From the IMG/VR virus record IMGVR_UViG_2778261303_000002: 7,743 bases of DNA. One strand, written 5' to 3'. Both the position numbers and the translations under genes were made by a program. A model generated the notes under the pieces. It was not told where the DNA came from. It did not search any database and was given only the letters and a program-made list of their open reading frames with translations. The stretch is from a virus (taxonomy: Duplodnaviria; Heunggongvirae; Uroviricota; Caudoviricetes). Shown piece by piece: positions 1-7,657 of this stretch. The number at the start of each line of letters is the position of its first letter. The stretch's first letter is position 1.

Positions 1-2798
1 GCAGATTTGTCAAAAGTCTGCCCCTGCATCAGGGCATAACCAGACGGAACGGTATCTGATGGCCACGGGATTGGTGCGCCAACTGGGTAGCTTTCTGGTG
101 GAAGATTTTTCGAGGTATAAACTTCTGCCCAGCCTTCCTCAAAACCATAGCCATCTCTTGAGGAACGGTAGAACAGACCTCCATTTCTGTAATGCGCCTT
201 CATCTGCAGGGTCCGGCAACTTCCGACTCCGGTATAGAAGTTAACCAGAATATAGCTGTCGCCAGAGCGGGTGACATTGTAAGCGCCTGATTCGGCATTC
301 CATGGAACGCCCCCATCCGCATCGGCATACGTATCCGTTGCCCTTCTGGCAAAAGCAGCCACATGCGCGGCGGTTAAAGTAATATCTTTGGAACCATCAA
401 ACTCAACACCAGAAACCAGTCTTGGCGTTTGCAGCTTTGTTGCTGTTAATGCATTACCGTTCAGACTTGCGGACAGTTTGGTTCCAATAACCAGTTCGCC
501 GGTTGCGTTATCAATAGCAAACGGTCTTAATGTATTCCAGCCACCATAAACATCACCTTGATTGGTAAGCAGCAGGTAAGTTTTAGCGCCATCATTACGC
601 CATAATGCACCATACTCCCCACCTATCATTCGAATCTGATTACCACCACGCGCTACAATTTCGTCTGTGGCAAAAAGTTTTTTGCACGACAAGTTATCGT
701 TAACGATTAACGAATGAGACTCATAAAAACCACGCCCACTCTTAAAATCAAGGATAACGTCCGCCGCGATACATTCAGTCGCTGGATTTGTTGCCCCAAA
801 CTTATAGGTCGTATCATTAACAACGAGATCAGCACCAGGTGCGGATATTGACAGGCCATCTTCGATAAACGCAAAAACAGGGAAAGCAGCGCCATCAACA
901 TAGAACACAGAGCGCAAATCATCGCCCTTATTACTCATCATTATTGAGTGGATGGCTCGTTCATTGTTTTGATATTGCCAGAACATTCCATAAGCATAAC
1001 GCCCCCTGTCAGTCCAGCCACCAGGCATAACAAATCCGTTAAACTCGCAGTTATTCATCGGATCGCCTGCGGTTCGCGTTGCCGTGGTGATAATGACCCT
1101 TGATGCCAGTTCGCTTACTGAGCCAGCAGAACGCATAACAACAACAGGGTAATATTTTCCAGATGTTGCACCTGCAGGAGCGTTAACCCGCACATAACGC
1201 ATACCACGCTTATCAGCAAAGTCTGTTTTACTGACCGCGTTAATGTTGTTCAGGAAGCGTCCCTTATCGGGTATATCAGCGCCGTTCTGGTCTTTCTGCA
1301 GACGTTTCTCTGCATTGTCATAGGCTGATTTTACTGCCTTTGGCGTTGCCGCCAGCGTTTCAGACGTACTGTTGGTCGCACTGCTGAGCTGTACTATCCC
1401 CTTTTTCGTCGTGCTCGCATCCTCAAGCGCCACGGCGGATGCAATATCCTCTGCCCGTTTTGCCGCTGTCTCGGCGCGCGTTGCCGCGGATTCCGCCGTA
1501 CTTTTGCTCTGTGCTGCCGCCGTCGCACTGCCAGCTGCCTCTGTCGCCTTCGTGGATGCTGTCGTGGCGCTGCCCTTCGCTGCTGACGCCTGTCTGGTCG
1601 CCTCATCTTTTGAAGCAGACGCCGATGATGCCGATGACGCCGCCGAACTGGCTGACGATGCGGCAGCCGTTTTTGAGGATTCTGCGCTGGTTTCCGACGC
1701 TTTCGCGTTCGTTTCGGATGTCTTCGCTGCGGAAGCTGACCTCGCTGCTGCGCTGGCCTGTTCAGTGGCTTCGCCAGCCTTCGTTGTGGCTGTTGAAGCG
1801 GATGATGCGGCGCTTTCTGCCGATTTTCCGGCGGCGGTGGCACTGGCTGAGGCCTGCCCGGCACTTGTTGACGCGGCGCTGGCAGATGATGCAGCCGCTG
1901 TTTTTGAGCCTGCCGCAGCTGAGGCGCTCTGTCCCGCTGCCGTCTCAGAAGACCTGGCGTTCGTCTCGGACGTTTTTGCCGCCTTCGCGGAATTTCCTGC
2001 CGCCGTTGCCGAGGAAGCTGCACTACTGGCGCTTGATGATGCGTTCGTTTCTGATGATTTTGCCGCTTCTTTTGAGGCCGCCGCATCCCGGGCCGAGGTC
2101 GCAGCTTCTGATGCCTTCGTGGTCGCGGTGGATGCAGATGTGGCTGCTGATTGTTGTGACGCTGAAGCATTCGTTTCTGACGTTTTCGCCGCACCGGCAC
2201 TGGTGGCCGCCGCGCTTTTTGAGGACTCTGCAGCGGCAGCACTTTTTGATGCTTCAGTGGCCTTTGTTGATGCCGTTCCTGCGCTGGAAGACGCTGACTG
2301 AGCCGACGACGCGGCCTGTCCGGCTGACGTGCTGGCTGCGCGTGCTGAGTCCGCAGCATCAGCCGCATGGGTTGCCGCCTCACGGGCTGATGTGCTGGCA
2401 TCACTGGCTGACTTCTTCGCGGCTGCCGTGTTCTGTGCCACCGCGGACGCGTTACGCGCCACCTCTTCCACCATCAGTTCAAAACGGCGCAGTGCCTCCG
2501 GACGGGCATCATCCTCCGTCATGGCACCGAGAAAATCATTCAGCGTACCGGGTTGAGAATCTTCATACACGGTGATGGTCCCGGCATGTGACGGCGGGAA
2601 TCCTTCCACCAACAGAATAACGCTGTACTGACCGTACTCAACGTCCATGCTGTAACGCCCGGCTTCATCCGGATTTTCTGAGGCCAGCGTGTTCACCACC
2701 ACCGTGGTGCTGTTACGTTTTGCTTTCAGCTGGATTGTGCAGTTCTGTACCGGTTTTCCTGTGCCGTCTTTCAGTACACCTGAAATCTTTACTGCCAT
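1..2798 (-). CDS. stf: Side tail fibre protein (lambda Stf / StfR-like), N-terminal ~932 codons; the 3' end and stop lie beyond the left edge of the window
   Basis: Hand translation of the minus strand: ATG at 2798-2796 gives [14 protein letters not shown], the recognisable lambda-type Stf N-terminus. The same frame (codon top coordinate = 2 mod 3) gives [28 protein letters not shown] around 2300-2217, [20 protein letters not shown] at 959-900, and [23 protein letters not shown] at 68-1. SD-like GGGGTG lies 4-5 nt upstream of the ATG. Not in the ORF track because no stop occurs inside the window. Only four segments were translated by hand, so an internal frameshift cannot be fully excluded. 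Confidence 0.88.
1500..2470 (-). repeat. GC-rich, Ala/Ser/Thr(+Lys/Glu)-rich low-complexity coding repeat inside stf (fibre shaft); boundaries approximate
   Basis: The true stf frame here reads [27 protein letters not shown]-type repeats. The strong codon-level bias leaves several frames open on both strands (track ORFs 1372..2301 +, 1394..2404 -, 1439..2575 +, 2329..2556 +). Sampled GC is about 63% here versus about 47% in distal stf (421-480). Confidence 0.7.
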
Positions 2799-2809
2799 AT
2801 TCACCCCAC

Positions 2810-2836
2810 AAAAAAGCCCGCCTGAACCGGCGGGCT
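2810..2836 (-). terminator. Putative rho-independent terminator between lom and stf (minus strand)
   Basis: Inverted repeat gcccgcc (2816-2822) / ggcgggc (2829-2835) with 6-nt loop, extendable by an A-T pair at 2815/2836. On the minus strand it is followed directly by TTTTTT (complement of 2810-2815), which runs into the stf RBS. No comparable T-tract on the plus strand. Confidence 0.55.
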
Positions 2837-2862
2837 GTCATAACACTGTGTTACCTGGCTAA

Positions 2863-3462
2863 TCAGAATTTATAACCGACACCCACGATGAAACCGTCAG
2901 TGCGCCAGTCACCACTGCCGGAGCCTTCATAAGCAATATCAATGGCCACGGATTCGGTCGGGTTAAACTGCACGCCAGCTCCCCACGCCAGAGACGTGTT
3001 GCTGTGGCGACCGTCATCACTTCCGGTCAGCACGTCGTGCGTTTTCCCCTTGTTGTCAGTTACGCGGAGATAATCCCCGGAGAAAGTCGACACACGGCTG
3101 TAAGCCACACCCGCCATCGCATACGCGCTGAACCATTCATTCACGCGCACAGACGGCCCCGCCATCACGCTGAACCAGCGGTTACGCACGGAATCTTCAT
3201 GCCAGCGGGTATCGCTGTAATGCGTTTTTTGCTCATCTTCAGCGTTGGCATAACTGAATGACGTAATCAGCCCCAGCGTGTCCGTAAACTCATAACGGTA
3301 TTTCACGTTAATCCCGTTCAGATCATCGCTGCCGGGAGCGTTCGTACGGGCATGAAGATACCCTGCGCTCAGTGTGGCCTGCTGCTCAGACGCCCATGCA
3401 GGCGCACCGGATACGGCCAGACAGATGGCTGCGGACAAAATGGCTGCACAAACTTTACGCAT
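2863..3462 (-). CDS. lom: Lom outer membrane protein (Ail/Lom/PagC/OmpX-family beta-barrel), phage lysogenic-conversion 'moron'
   Basis: 199-aa [31 protein letters not shown]..., near-identical to lambda Lom as I recall it. Signal peptide with AWA/S cleavage motif, and a C-terminal ...GVGYKF ending in Phe, typical of OMP beta-barrels. SD GAGAGG upstream of the ATG. Position between J and stf matches lambda gene order. Confidence 0.95.
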
Positions 3463-3486
3463 AATTACCTCTCGCTTTTCTGCAAT

Positions 3487-3510
3487 AAAAAAGGCGCCAT
3501 TTCTGGCGCC
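3487..3510 (-). terminator. Putative rho-independent terminator between J stop and lom start (minus strand)
   Basis: Inverted repeat ggcgcca (3493-3499) / tggcgcc (3504-3510) with loop tttc. On the minus strand the hairpin begins 20 nt after the J stop and is followed by TTTTTT (complement of 3487-3492). Confidence 0.5.
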
Positions 3511-3529
3511 CGTATATGGGTTATAAAAT

Positions 3530-6500
3530 TCAGCTGATACTGATGCCTGCGGTGGCTTTCTTCATCACCACAACCAGCAAATCGCTGATACTTGCTGTGG
3601 GATACCAGTCATTTACCAGCCATGCTGACACCGAAAACTCCAGCGTCATGTGGCCGTGACCAGCTGGCATATCAATAACACCACTGTAAATCAGCGTATT
3701 ATCCAGCGCGGTACGGTTATAAATTTCAGCACCATTTTTCTTCACTATCAGGCGGCATGACGAATAAATATCGTTATTCTCCCGCTCATGTTTAGCGCCG
3801 CAGAATGCCACCGCTGGAATAACAATTTGCCTGTCAAAAGGCTGATCGTCATAAATCCTGACGGTAATGGTCCCTGATGACCACCGCTCCGGTGCCCGGG
3901 AGTCCCGCGGGAAAGCCTTACCCACTGTTTTGACAATATCGCCTTCAATCTGATTGGCTGACAGTTTCCCCTTAATCTGACAGTTCTCATTAATCGTGAC
4001 GTTGTTGAGCGTCCCTGAGTTCGCATTCACACTGCCACTGATATCCGCATTTTTAGCGGTCAGCTTTCCGTCTGATGTCAGGGAAAATACCGGAGGACTG
4101 CCACCGCTGGTAATGGTGGGGGCCGTCAGGCGCTTCAGGAACACGTCGTTCATGAATATCTGGTTGCCCTGCGCCACAAACATCGGCGTTTCATTCCCGT
4201 TTGCCGGGTCAATAAACGCGATACGGTTAGCGGCAACCAGAAACTGGCTCAGCTTGCCTTCCTCCGTGTCCTCCATGCTGAGGCCAATACCCGCGACATA
4301 ATGTTTGCCGTCTTTGGTCTGCTCAATTTTGACGCCCCACATGGCATTCCATTTATCGTTAGCGTCCTTCCACTCTTTCGAAAACTCATCCAGTCTGCTG
4401 GCGTTATCCTCCGTCAGATCGACTTTTTCCAGCAGCTCCTTGCCGAGATGGGATTCGGTTATCTGCCCTTTGAAAAAATCCAGGTAACCTTCCGCATCAT
4501 CGCTCGCCCGACCGACGGCCTCCACAAATGCCGATTTGCCTACGGTGTTCACACTGCGAACGTAAAAATAATAATCATGGCCCGGTTTGATATTGATACT
4601 GGCGGCTATCCAGTACAGCGCCGTACCAAGATAGCGCGCTGTGGTTTCAACCTGCCTGATATCGGTAATCCGCTTTTCCGAGAACCAGAACTCAAACTGT
4701 ACCGTCGGGTCATAAACGGCAAGATGCGGCGTGGCGGTTATCTGAAAATAGCCCGGCGTCAGCTCAATCCGCGACGGTGCTGCCGGTGCGGCAATCCGGA
4801 ACGATACCGACGCCGGATCGCCCTGCTGCCCCCACGCATTTACCGCCCGGACTGTCAGCCTGTAGTTCCCCAGCGCCAGTTGCCTGAAGCGGTATGTGGT
4901 TTCCGTCGTCCGGGCCGTGCTGACCAGCCGCTCACTGCCGTCGTCCGCTGTTACGGTCAGACGGAGCAGGAAGCTCACCCCCTTCACCACCTTCGGCGTG
5001 TCCCAGCGCGCCAGTACCTGATACTCCCCGCTGTCTGCGGTGACTTCGGCAGTCAGGTGCTGCACCGCTGGCGGCGTGACACCATTCACCGTGCCGCTCT
5101 GGTCGCCGTCAAAGTACGCCCCGTTATCCACGATGGACTCTTTTTCCGGTACATGCTGCACGGCGGTGATGGCATACGTGCCGTCGTCGTTCTCACGGAT
5201 ACTCACGCAGCGGAACAGGCGCTGGCGCAGCGTCGGCAGCTTCAGCCCCCACACGCTGTATTCAGCAACACCGTCAGGAACACGGCTCACTTTCACCTTC
5301 ACGCCGTCGGTGACGGACTGAACCTCCACGCTGATCGGATTGCCACTTCCGTCAACCAGGCTTATCAGCGTGGTACCGGAGGATGGCAGCGTGATTTCAC
5401 GGTCGAGTGTCAGCGTCCGGGTCTGGCTGTTCACCGCCAGCACGCGCCCGCCGGTGCTGATACCGGCATAGTCATCATCGCAGATTTCAATGACATCGCC
5501 CGGCACATGGCGAAGCCCTTCTGCGCCCACGCAGAAGTCCACGGTCTGCGTTTCCAGCAGTTCTGTTTTAATCAGCCACAGCCCGGCGCGGTGTGCCTGC
5601 CCCCGACTGGTACAGCCAAAGGCATCCATCTTCGTGACGTTACGACCGTAACGGGCAATGGCCTGCGTGTCCTCCACAAGCTCTGTTGCCGTCTCCCAGC
5701 CGTTGTTCGGGTCAATCCAGTTCACCTCAACGGCATTATGGCGGTCCTTCAGGGCGCTGAAGCTGTAGCGGAACGGCGCGCCATCATCCGGCATCACCAC
5801 ATTACTGCGGTTATAGGTCCACACCTTATCCGACGGCCGGTCCTGCACGAACGTCAGCGTCTGCCCGTTCCATACCGGCATACAGCGCATCGCCGAGCAG
5901 AAATCACTGAGCACATCCCACGCCTTACGTTGTGTGGTCAGGTAAGCGTTACAGGTGATGCGCGGCTCCGTACCGCCAAAGCCGTCCGGCACCGACTGGT
6001 CGCAGTACTGGCCGATGACATACAGCGCCCATTTATCCACATCTGCCGCACCAAGACGTTTCCCCATGCCGTAGCGCGGGTGGGTCAGCATATCCCACAG
6101 ACACCAGGCCATGTTGTTGCTGTATGCCGGTTTTAACGTTCCGTCCCAGATACCGCTGTATTGTCGCGTCTGCGGGTTATAGTTCGACGGCACCTGCAGA
6201 ATGCGCCCGCGAAGATGATAATTACGGCTCACCTGCTGGCTGCCGAACTGCTCCGAATCCACCTGCACGCCGACCAGTGCCGTGTTCGGGTAGCACTGTT
6301 TCACATCGATGATTTCGGTGCATGACGACCAGAGCGTTTTGTTCTGCAGCTGGTCTGTGGTGCTGTCCGGCGTCATCCTGCGCATCCGGATATTAAACGG
6401 GCGCGGCGGCAGGTTATCCACCACCACCGAGGCCAGATACTGCGAGGTGGTTTTGCCCTTAATGGTGATGTCTTTTTCCGTCACCCAGCCACCGTTACGC

Positions 6501-6925
6501 TGTATCTGAACCAGCAGGCGGACTTCCGATGGATTCCTGTCCCCCTTTGAGGTGGTTTCCACCAGTGCCTGCACACCGAAGGTAAAGCGCAGACGGTCGA
6601 TGTTTGCCGACGTGATGGTGCGGGTGATCGGCGTGTCATATTTCACTTCCGTACCCAGCACAGTCTCGGAGCCGGAGGATTCAAAACCTTCCGGCGGTGT
6701 CTGCTCCTGCTCACCTGCCCGGAAAACCACCGTGACACCGGAGATATTGGTATTCCCCTCACTGTCCAGCACTGGCGTACTGTTCAGCAGCACACTTTTT
6801 AATCCGTCCACCGGACCTTCAACCGGCCCTTCGCTGATGGCGTCTATCACGCTCAGCATCTGGGATGATTTCAGGTTGTCCTTCGCTTCGCGCGGGGTAT
6901 GCCCCTTACTGCTGCCTTTACCCAT
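3530..6925 (-). CDS. J: Host specificity protein J (tail tip / central tail fibre, receptor recognition)
   Basis: 1131-aa ORF beginning [20 protein letters not shown]..., matching lambda J (1132 aa) along most of its length as I recall it. Follows I after a 60-nt gap. The C-terminal ~140 aa appear to differ from lambda J (see findings). Confidence 0.97.
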
Positions 6926-6947
6926 TCCTCACGCTCCAGAAACGACA

Positions 6948-6967
6948 AAACCGCCCTGAGGCGGTTT
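6948..6967 (-). other. Stem-loop in the I-J intergenic region (minus-strand transcript)
   Basis: 8-bp inverted repeat aaaccgcc (6948-6955) / ggcggttt (6960-6967) with loop ctga, inside the 60-nt gap between the I stop and the J start. On the minus strand it is followed by TTTTGTCGTTTCTGG and then GGAG...GAGGA-ATG of J. Weak terminator or mRNA structure; function unknown. Confidence 0.3.
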
Positions 6968-6985
6968 CACATAAAACGTTTTTCA

Positions 6986-7657
6986 TCAACGACCAATCAC
7001 CACAACCTGGCCACCGTCCCCCTCGTCTGCCGTGCTGATCTCCTGAGAAGCCACCCGCGACCCCACGCGCATTTCACCGTACAGAACAGGCAGAACATTG
7101 CCCTGGGCAACCATGTTATCCAGTGAGGAGAAATAGGTGTTCTGCTTACCGTTATCCGTTGTCTGTATACGGGGAGTTCTGGCTTTCGGTGCCAGCATCT
7201 GCGCCACACCACCGAGCACCATACTGGCACCGAGAGAAAACAGGATGCCGGTCATACCACCGGCCCCAATGGCTGCCCCCCATGCTGCAAGGGTGGCTCC
7301 GGCGGTAAAGAATGATCCGGCAATGGCGGCAGCTCCCAGGACAATCTGGAATACGCCCCCTGACTTGGCTCCGGCGACTCTGGGAACAATATGAATCACA
7401 GCGCCGTCAGGCAGAGTCTCATGTAACTGCGCCGTTAACCCGGACGTGCTGACGTCCCGCCCGGCAATCCGTACCTGATACCAGCCGTCGCTCAGTTTCT
7501 GACGAAACGCCGGGAGCTGTGTGGCCAGCGCCCGGATGGCTTCAGCCCCCGTTTTCACACGAAGGTCGATGCGGCGGCCAAATCGTTGTAAATCCCCGTA
7601 AAGGCAGATGCGCGCCATGCCCGGTGACGCCAGAGGGAGTGTGTGCGTCGCTGCCAT
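6986..7657 (-). CDS. I: Tail tip assembly protein I
   Basis: 223-aa ORF MAATHTLPLASPGMARICLYGDLQRFGRRIDLRVKTG..., the same length and, to my recollection, essentially the same sequence as lambda gpI. Its start lies inside the 3' end of K in a different frame, as in lambda. Confidence 0.95.
   Translation of the reverse strand: MAATHTLPLASPGMARICLYGDLQRFGRRIDLRVKTGAEAIRALATQLPAFRQKLSDGWYQVRIAGRDVSTSGLTAQLHETLPDGAVIHIVPRVAGAKSGGVFQIVLGAAAIAGSFFTAGATLAAWGAAIGAGGMTGILFSLGASMVLGGVAQMLAPKARTPRIQTTDNGKQNTYFSSLDNMVAQGNVLPVLYGEMRVGSRVASQEISTADEGDGGQVVVIGR

Follow-up and report, generated by a model that had tools for sequence, protein, structure and literature searches.

Terminator-type hairpins in the J-lom-stf region of a lambda-like Escherichia coli prophage and the extent of the lom cassette

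The window considered here, by which we mean the whole stretch of 7,743 nt that was analysed, comes from a lambda-like E. coli prophage, of whose late (tail) operon it forms the distal end. Its genes all lie on the minus strand in the order I-J-lom-stf and are separated by intergenic gaps of 60 nt (I-J), 67 nt (J-lom) and 64 nt (lom-stf). The tail assembly gene I (6986..7657, 223 aa) matches PF06805 Lambda_tail_I with E=1.2e-28, and the tail tip and host specificity gene J (3530..6925, 1131 aa) carries six J-specific Pfam domains, among them PF12421, the C-terminal receptor-binding domain. The side tail fibre gene stf (3..2798) runs off the window, which holds at least 932 aa of its product; Pfam profiles recognise in it PF08400 phage_tail_N (E=7.8e-72) and PF21446. 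The Shine-Dalgarno (SD) sequence of stf, GGGGTGA (2807-2801, minus strand), comes directly after the T-run of the hairpin that closes the lom-stf gap.

Between J and stf lies lom (2863..3462), encoding a predicted outer-membrane beta-barrel protein of the Ail/Lom family of 199 aa. Residues 1-199 of Lom fall on profile positions 1-199 of PF06316 with 422 bits (cut-off 23) and E=4e-127, and PF13505 is matched with E=5e-23. The N-terminus is signal-peptide-like and the C-terminus reads ...VGVGYKF with an aromatic end, both features having been judged by eye on the translation and not with a dedicated predictor. By this profile match lom is a full-length Ail/Lom family gene. Its SD, GAGAGG (3468..3473, minus strand), was read from the sequence; it stands 5 nt ahead of the ATG and is unchanged across all relatives of the same allele class. 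With the 8-stranded outer-membrane beta-barrels Ail, PagC and OmpX the Lom of the window shares the full-length PF06316 match and the signal-peptide-like N-terminus; however, those proteins are encoded by chromosomal or plasmid virulence loci, whereas the window lom is found in a prophage tail operon.

Each of the two gaps flanking lom contains a hairpin of the intrinsic-terminator type on the coding (minus) strand. In the J-lom gap (3484..3511) an 8-bp stem with 6 GC pairs (3511-3492, arms GGGCGCCA/TGGCGCCT) encloses the 4-nt loop GAAA and is followed by T6 at 3492-3487 and then by ATT, with a free energy of -13.5 kcal/mol. The hairpin of the lom-stf gap (2810..2836) has an 8-bp stem with 7 GC pairs (2836-2815, arms AGCCCGCC/GGCGGGCT), the 6-nt loop GGTTCA, T6 at 2815-2810 and a free energy of -17.6 kcal/mol. 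When strict rules were applied to both strands of the 7.7-kb window (stems of 7 bp or more with five or more GC pairs and no more than one GU, a loop of 3-8, and 5 or more T among the 6 bases that follow), only this pair passed, whereas dinucleotide shuffles gave a mean of 0.045 strict matches per window and two or more matches in 0 of 200 cases. A loose scan found 9 matches in the window with 7.8 expected, a total that is not above chance, and the lom-flanking pair ranks first and second among them. Bidirectional terminators were considered and ruled out: since neither stem has a T-run on the opposite (+) strand, both hairpins are unidirectional. A scan of positions 2600-3800 against Rfam at E<=1 returned only two sub-threshold chance matches, one to Trp_leader (21.7 bits, where the gathering score is 41), the other to a human lncRNA family. 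The original prediction, which had assigned lom to an Ail-type family and had described a GC stem followed by a T-tract in both flanking gaps (3487-3510 and 2810-2836), is therefore borne out on both points.

The same two hairpins occur at the same positions in phages mEp460 (JQ182728.1), Ayreon (MF807953.1) and 434 (OL657226.1), which carry lom of the same allele class and differ from the window here only by point differences, such as the GCACC/GGTGC stem variant in 434. Both lom-flanking sites are annotated as terminators in the three records (in mEp460 as 'rho-independent terminator', twice), these annotations being software predictions and not experiments.

How the hairpins vary among relatives is more telling for the upstream one. 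Among about 100 related loci its stem takes three forms, GGGCGCCA/TGGCGCCT, GGGCACCA/TGGTGCCT and GGGCGTCA/TGACGCCT, which represent two independent compensatory double substitutions; in the alignment fold of 16 distinct sequences, G-C is replaced by A-U in 2 and C-G by U-A in 5. Rare variants include a C-A mismatch (locus L052) and, in PhiR63_1, a one-sided C-to-T change that retains a U-G wobble pair. Lambda carries at the equivalent spot a non-homologous hairpin, CGTCCG-GGAA-CGGGCG followed by TTTTATTAT, which is weaker than that of the window (6 bp, -9 kcal/mol, and the tail just given). Tandem terminators, t'J1 and t'J2, are reported to have been mapped downstream of lambda J by Luk & Szybalski (1983). 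Concerning the downstream hairpin, it is present in all related loci examined except one (L075). In lambda its loop differs and one G-C pair has become G-U, with the fold preserved; variation in this stem consists only of G-U and loop changes and is thus weakly informative on covariation. The T-run is retained in all variants of both hairpins. Both structures are therefore under selection, in view of the compensatory changes upstream and the fold-preserving lambda changes downstream, the evidence being stronger for the upstream hairpin; and both have the anatomy of intrinsic (Rho-independent) terminators and are evolutionarily maintained.

Some further observations were made on these gaps. A short motif, TTATAACCC(C)A, lies at 3512-3526 (minus strand), past the J stop codon and ahead of the upstream hairpin; the J allele classes of the non-lambda group and the lom-less phages have it in conserved form, and lambda lacks it. 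In the exceptional locus L075 an IS200-like transposase element (2340-2995) occupies the exact place of the lom-stf terminator, supplying its own end hairpin, CCTCCGGC-TAT-GCCGGAGG, and leaving the stf ribosome-binding site intact. In four other loci (L008, L009 and L011, upstream of the stf start, and L042 at 2684-2933) lom is cut by foreign DNA or has lost its 5' part, and in all four the stretch from the lom 3' end through the downstream hairpin to the stf start survives. The lomR gene of E. coli K-12 is likewise broken by IS5 (PMC11677980).

The extent of the lom unit could be read from seven phage records in which lom is absent and J is followed directly by stf, i.e. Tritos, HannyBb, ev207 (twice), PhiR11_1, PhiR11_1_star and PhiR63_1. 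The J-stf junction in Tritos and PhiR63_1 is ...GGCGCCTTTTTTATT|TGTGGAGTGAGTATG, and the lom-less gap of 60 nt, which reads AATATTTATAACCCCAATACGGGCGCCAGAAATGGCGCCTTTTTTATT|TGTGGAGTGAGT-ATG, is the window's upstream hairpin and T-run fused to the stf ribosome-binding site. Records that bear lom align to the lom-less junction in two pieces, over a span of about 1035 bp for a query of 361 nt, and the ends of the indel fall within the two T-runs, where 1-3 nt of T microhomology is all that is shared. The inferred cassette thus covers 2811..3483 (minus strand), 673 nt comprising a 21-nt leader with the SD, lom itself and the 3' gap with its own hairpin, and its ends are ambiguous by about 2 nt owing to the T microhomology. 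Since some otherwise syntenic phages are without it, lom behaves as an insertable or deletable unit; the microhomology at the junction would fit either an ancestral lom-less state or a deletion. The upstream hairpin persists in the phages without lom and therefore belongs to J and not to lom, while the downstream one is missing from the lom-less J-stf junctions and therefore travels with lom.

Hairpins of this kind are not restricted to the neighbourhood of lom. The I-J gap of the window contains a weaker terminator-like element (6940..6968, minus strand), GAAACCGCC-UCAG-GGCGGUUU followed by the interrupted T-run UGUCGUUU. The fold of this 60-nt gap has -20.7 kcal/mol with z=-2.3, and its terminator score, computed with a formula that is approximate only, is borderline. 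The hairpin is conserved in every lambdoid relative compared, 2G7b, 2H10, 434, Tritos, cdtI and PhiR34_1 among them, and in lambda as well; the record of phage 434 (OL657226.1) labels it 'terminator'. J is hence bracketed by hairpins just as lom is. Lambda itself (J02459, L127) has a GC hairpin with a T-rich run in the D-E (6080-6134), E-FI (7161-7201), I-J (15445-15504), J-lom and lom-stf gaps and after tfa (22558-22620). Two nominal gaps of the old annotation, L-K and orf401-orf314, were set aside in this survey; the latter is the lab-strain frameshift within stf. Terminator-like hairpins are thus a general property of the late-operon gaps, found in every sizeable one, and lom is not specially insulated, contrary to what had been proposed. 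The picture of lom as a terminator-insulated cassette survives in part: a presence/absence unit with its own downstream hairpin is there, but the upstream hairpin is that of J and the two do not form a matched insulating pair.

Comparison with lambda was also used to place the window. In lambda (J02459, 18904-19649) the gene order J-lom-stf is the same, and the gaps are of nearly equal size (60/61/64 nt there, 60/67/64 nt in the window); the lom-stf gap, which has the same hairpin, shares 94% identity with that of the window, while the J-lom gap also has a hairpin and a T-run, but of different sequence and weaker. The possibility that the window is lambda was rejected, Lom being 47% identical in amino acids to lambda Lom, whereas the best phage matches reach 94-98% nucleotide identity (phage 204576, vB_EcoS-640R1, JLK-2012 and many Stx-converting phages). 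The block diverged from lambda runs from about 4000 to about 2950, with only 48-68% nucleotide identity, and takes in the receptor-binding C-terminal domain of J, the J-lom gap and lom up to ~85% of its length; on both sides of it identity exceeds 90%, on the lom side through the remaining ~90 nt of that gene, the downstream gap and the stf start. In relatives other than lambda the 3'-terminal 300 nt of J are freely exchanged (58-66% identity), independently of lom, whereas identity remains at 84-100% in the J-lom gap, in lom itself, in the lom-stf gap and in the 5' end of stf. From this pattern of identity along the block, the exchange points are the J stop codon and a place inside lom, not the two hairpins. 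A foreign composition of lom was considered and rejected as well: at 55.7% GC (GC3 60.5%) it does not stand out from the window (55.6%), J (56.6%) or stf (54.0%).

The Lom of the window belongs to the allele that E. coli prophages and Stx phages commonly carry. Of 5426 complete E. coli genomes, 4812 have matches to the 1-kb J-lom-stf stretch, which add up to 15,784 places, with as many as 14 in one genome. A search of contigs for diverse Lom loci gave mostly E. coli/Shigella copies and lambda contamination, with little added diversity. Matches to lom were also seen in assemblies labelled Neobacillus, Kitasatospora, Pseudomonas, Shewanella, Bradyrhizobium and others (L091-L104, L107-L110, L112-L115), mostly on low-coverage contigs; the upstream gaps read in two of them (L092, L093) are exactly lambda's J-lom gap, and the lom of these unrelated assemblies is almost certainly lambda spike-in or vector contamination.

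We consider that these data are best explained together by Rho-independent terminator-type hairpins arranged in series, of which the upstream one is that of J and the downstream one is the end of the 673-nt cassette, inserted between the T-run of J's terminator and the stf ribosome-binding site, and which the late antiterminator Q would allow polymerase to pass; we give this joint reading a probability of about 0.8. Polymerase unmodified by Q would stop at the hairpins, so that stray transcription in the lysogen would leave the tail genes and lom unexpressed. Q-modified polymerase coming from the late promoter would read through all of them, so that J, lom and stf would be carried on one message and lom would be translated from its own SD. 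Q antitermination is established for lambdoid late transcription; the Q gene, the late promoter and the Q-binding site lie beyond the 7.7 kb of the window. No promoter-like site that would serve stf came out of the consensus scan, and the gene sits downstream of all three hairpins of the window; it is from this position, taken with what is known of Q in lambdoid phages, that we infer the readthrough. On the coding strand of the 7.7 kb the only promoter-like site was one inside stf. The best promoter-like site of the window is an antisense one within J, at 4548-4575 (+), TTCACA-16-AATAAT, matching 10/12; it is also present in lambda J (L001, 3383-3356).

A different function for the hairpins may be envisaged, in which they would be mainly elements of RNA stability or processing: as 3' stem-loops they would shield the J or lom segments of a cleaved late mRNA from 3'-to-5' exonucleases and so set the dosage of late proteins, termination being incidental. 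The presence of similar hairpins after the very highly expressed lambda genes D and E, which encode the most abundant structural proteins, fits mRNA stability as well as it fits termination and speaks against our explanation. Their occurrence in every gap of the late operon, whether a moron is there or not, favours the stability role too. The covariation of the stem shows selection for an RNA or DNA structure without identifying the function selected. The uninterrupted T6 just 3' of both stems, however, is the signature of intrinsic terminators and would be needless in a protective hairpin, and this T-run is the part that no variant has lost; moreover the two roles are not mutually exclusive. 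We regard stability as the main function as possible but on balance unlikely, while a further or alternative part in stabilising the 3' ends of processed late mRNA segments is plausible, and is one that sequence alone does not separate from termination.

If unmodified polymerase stops at both hairpins, as the series of terminators would have it, the question arises of how lom could be transcribed in a lysogen. The lack of a convincing sigma70 promoter ahead of lom, remarked on in the original prediction, was met with again in two scans: a consensus sigma-70 scan gave no coding-strand site near lom, and a weight-matrix scan of the 500 nt upstream of lom gave a best site of 5.6 bits, which corresponds to about the 99.95th percentile of all window positions and is chance level for that many positions. 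pagC is regulated through a PhoP box, a type of regulation for which we have no counterpart at the window lom, as the PhoP-box patterns searched there gave no match. In lambda a TATTAT hexamer lies 21 nt before the lom ATG, but its -35 partner would land inside the GC stem, and the hexamer is not conserved in the window, which has TTTATTG instead. Since the distance from the 5' end of the cassette to the lom ATG is only 21 nt, the cassette cannot hold a promoter. There may still be an activator-dependent or otherwise non-canonical promoter for lom.

These results weigh on a model in which lom is a classical autonomous moron, insulated on both sides and transcribed in the lysogen from its own promoter, which would be sited ahead of the ATG and either follow the upstream hairpin or overlap with it. 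The moron concept was defined for HK97 gene 15 (Juhala et al. 2000), as summarised in the review PMC3594210. Like morons of the HK97 type, lom is an extra gene of the tail operon that is absent from close relatives, its cassette has its own terminator and its product would act on the envelope; unlike them, it has neither a findable promoter nor room for one, its GC is not deviant, and the upstream hairpin, which stays when lom is absent, is not part of the unit. It thus shares with morons three traits (presence/absence, own terminator, host-directed product) and lacks two (own promoter, deviant composition). Reports on expression are divided. Lambda lom is described as transcribed in lysogens in statements of PMC1151598 and PMC7067206 that both trace to Reeve & Shaw 1979, and the Lom orthologue of the unrelated podovirus 24B was equally expressed with or without induction (PMC3342100), both of which, together with the TATTAT of lambda, would favour an autonomous lom; a microarray study, however, did not detect lom in lysogens and calls its promoter little known (PMC2147009). 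For the lytic cycle, strong expression of Lom is stated in PMC9836094, which cites Liu et al. 2013. The literature searched for lomR/stfR and for phage 24B had nothing on terminators at the J-lom-stf locus. A point against our explanation is that expression of lambda lom in repressed lysogens, as stated in PMC1151598, would be difficult to account for if both hairpins terminate efficiently and no promoter lies between them. Taking the short leader, the two scans and the lambda hexamer not conserved here together with the ordinary composition and the microarray data, we consider the autonomous model improbable.

Least probable of all is that the hairpins are functionless leftovers of module junctions, once the ends of shorter operons and now neutral under Q antitermination, as might be thought from their position at mosaic boundaries, where J C-terminal alleles swap just upstream of the first gap next to a well conserved remainder and where the lom indel ends, since the compensatory substitutions and the different hairpin of lambda argue for purifying selection on structure, the intermediates seen, those of L052 and PhiR63_1, are rare, and the hairpins are conserved over thousands of E. 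coli prophage copies.

Returning to terminators in series read through with Q, the layout of flanking hairpins is already known, ordinary and very common, and is annotated in public phage records. The comparison with lom-less phages adds a sharper statement of an old loose end, by fixing the cassette at 673 nt with a 21-nt leader, with which a textbook self-contained moron carrying its own promoter does not fit. How, or whether, repressed lysogens make lom has become a matter that can be addressed with a few defined constructs. As a tentative and rather doubtful proposal, lom of this common allele class might be a promoterless late gene (SD, open reading frame and terminator) placed behind J's terminator and made mainly in the lytic cycle, any expression in the lysogen coming from leak-through at the terminator or from an unconventional, activator-dependent start overlapping J's terminator, and would then not be an autonomous lysogenic-conversion moron. 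If this were true, Lom made late might act, for instance, by changing the outer membrane at lysis or by restricting the re-adsorption of progeny.
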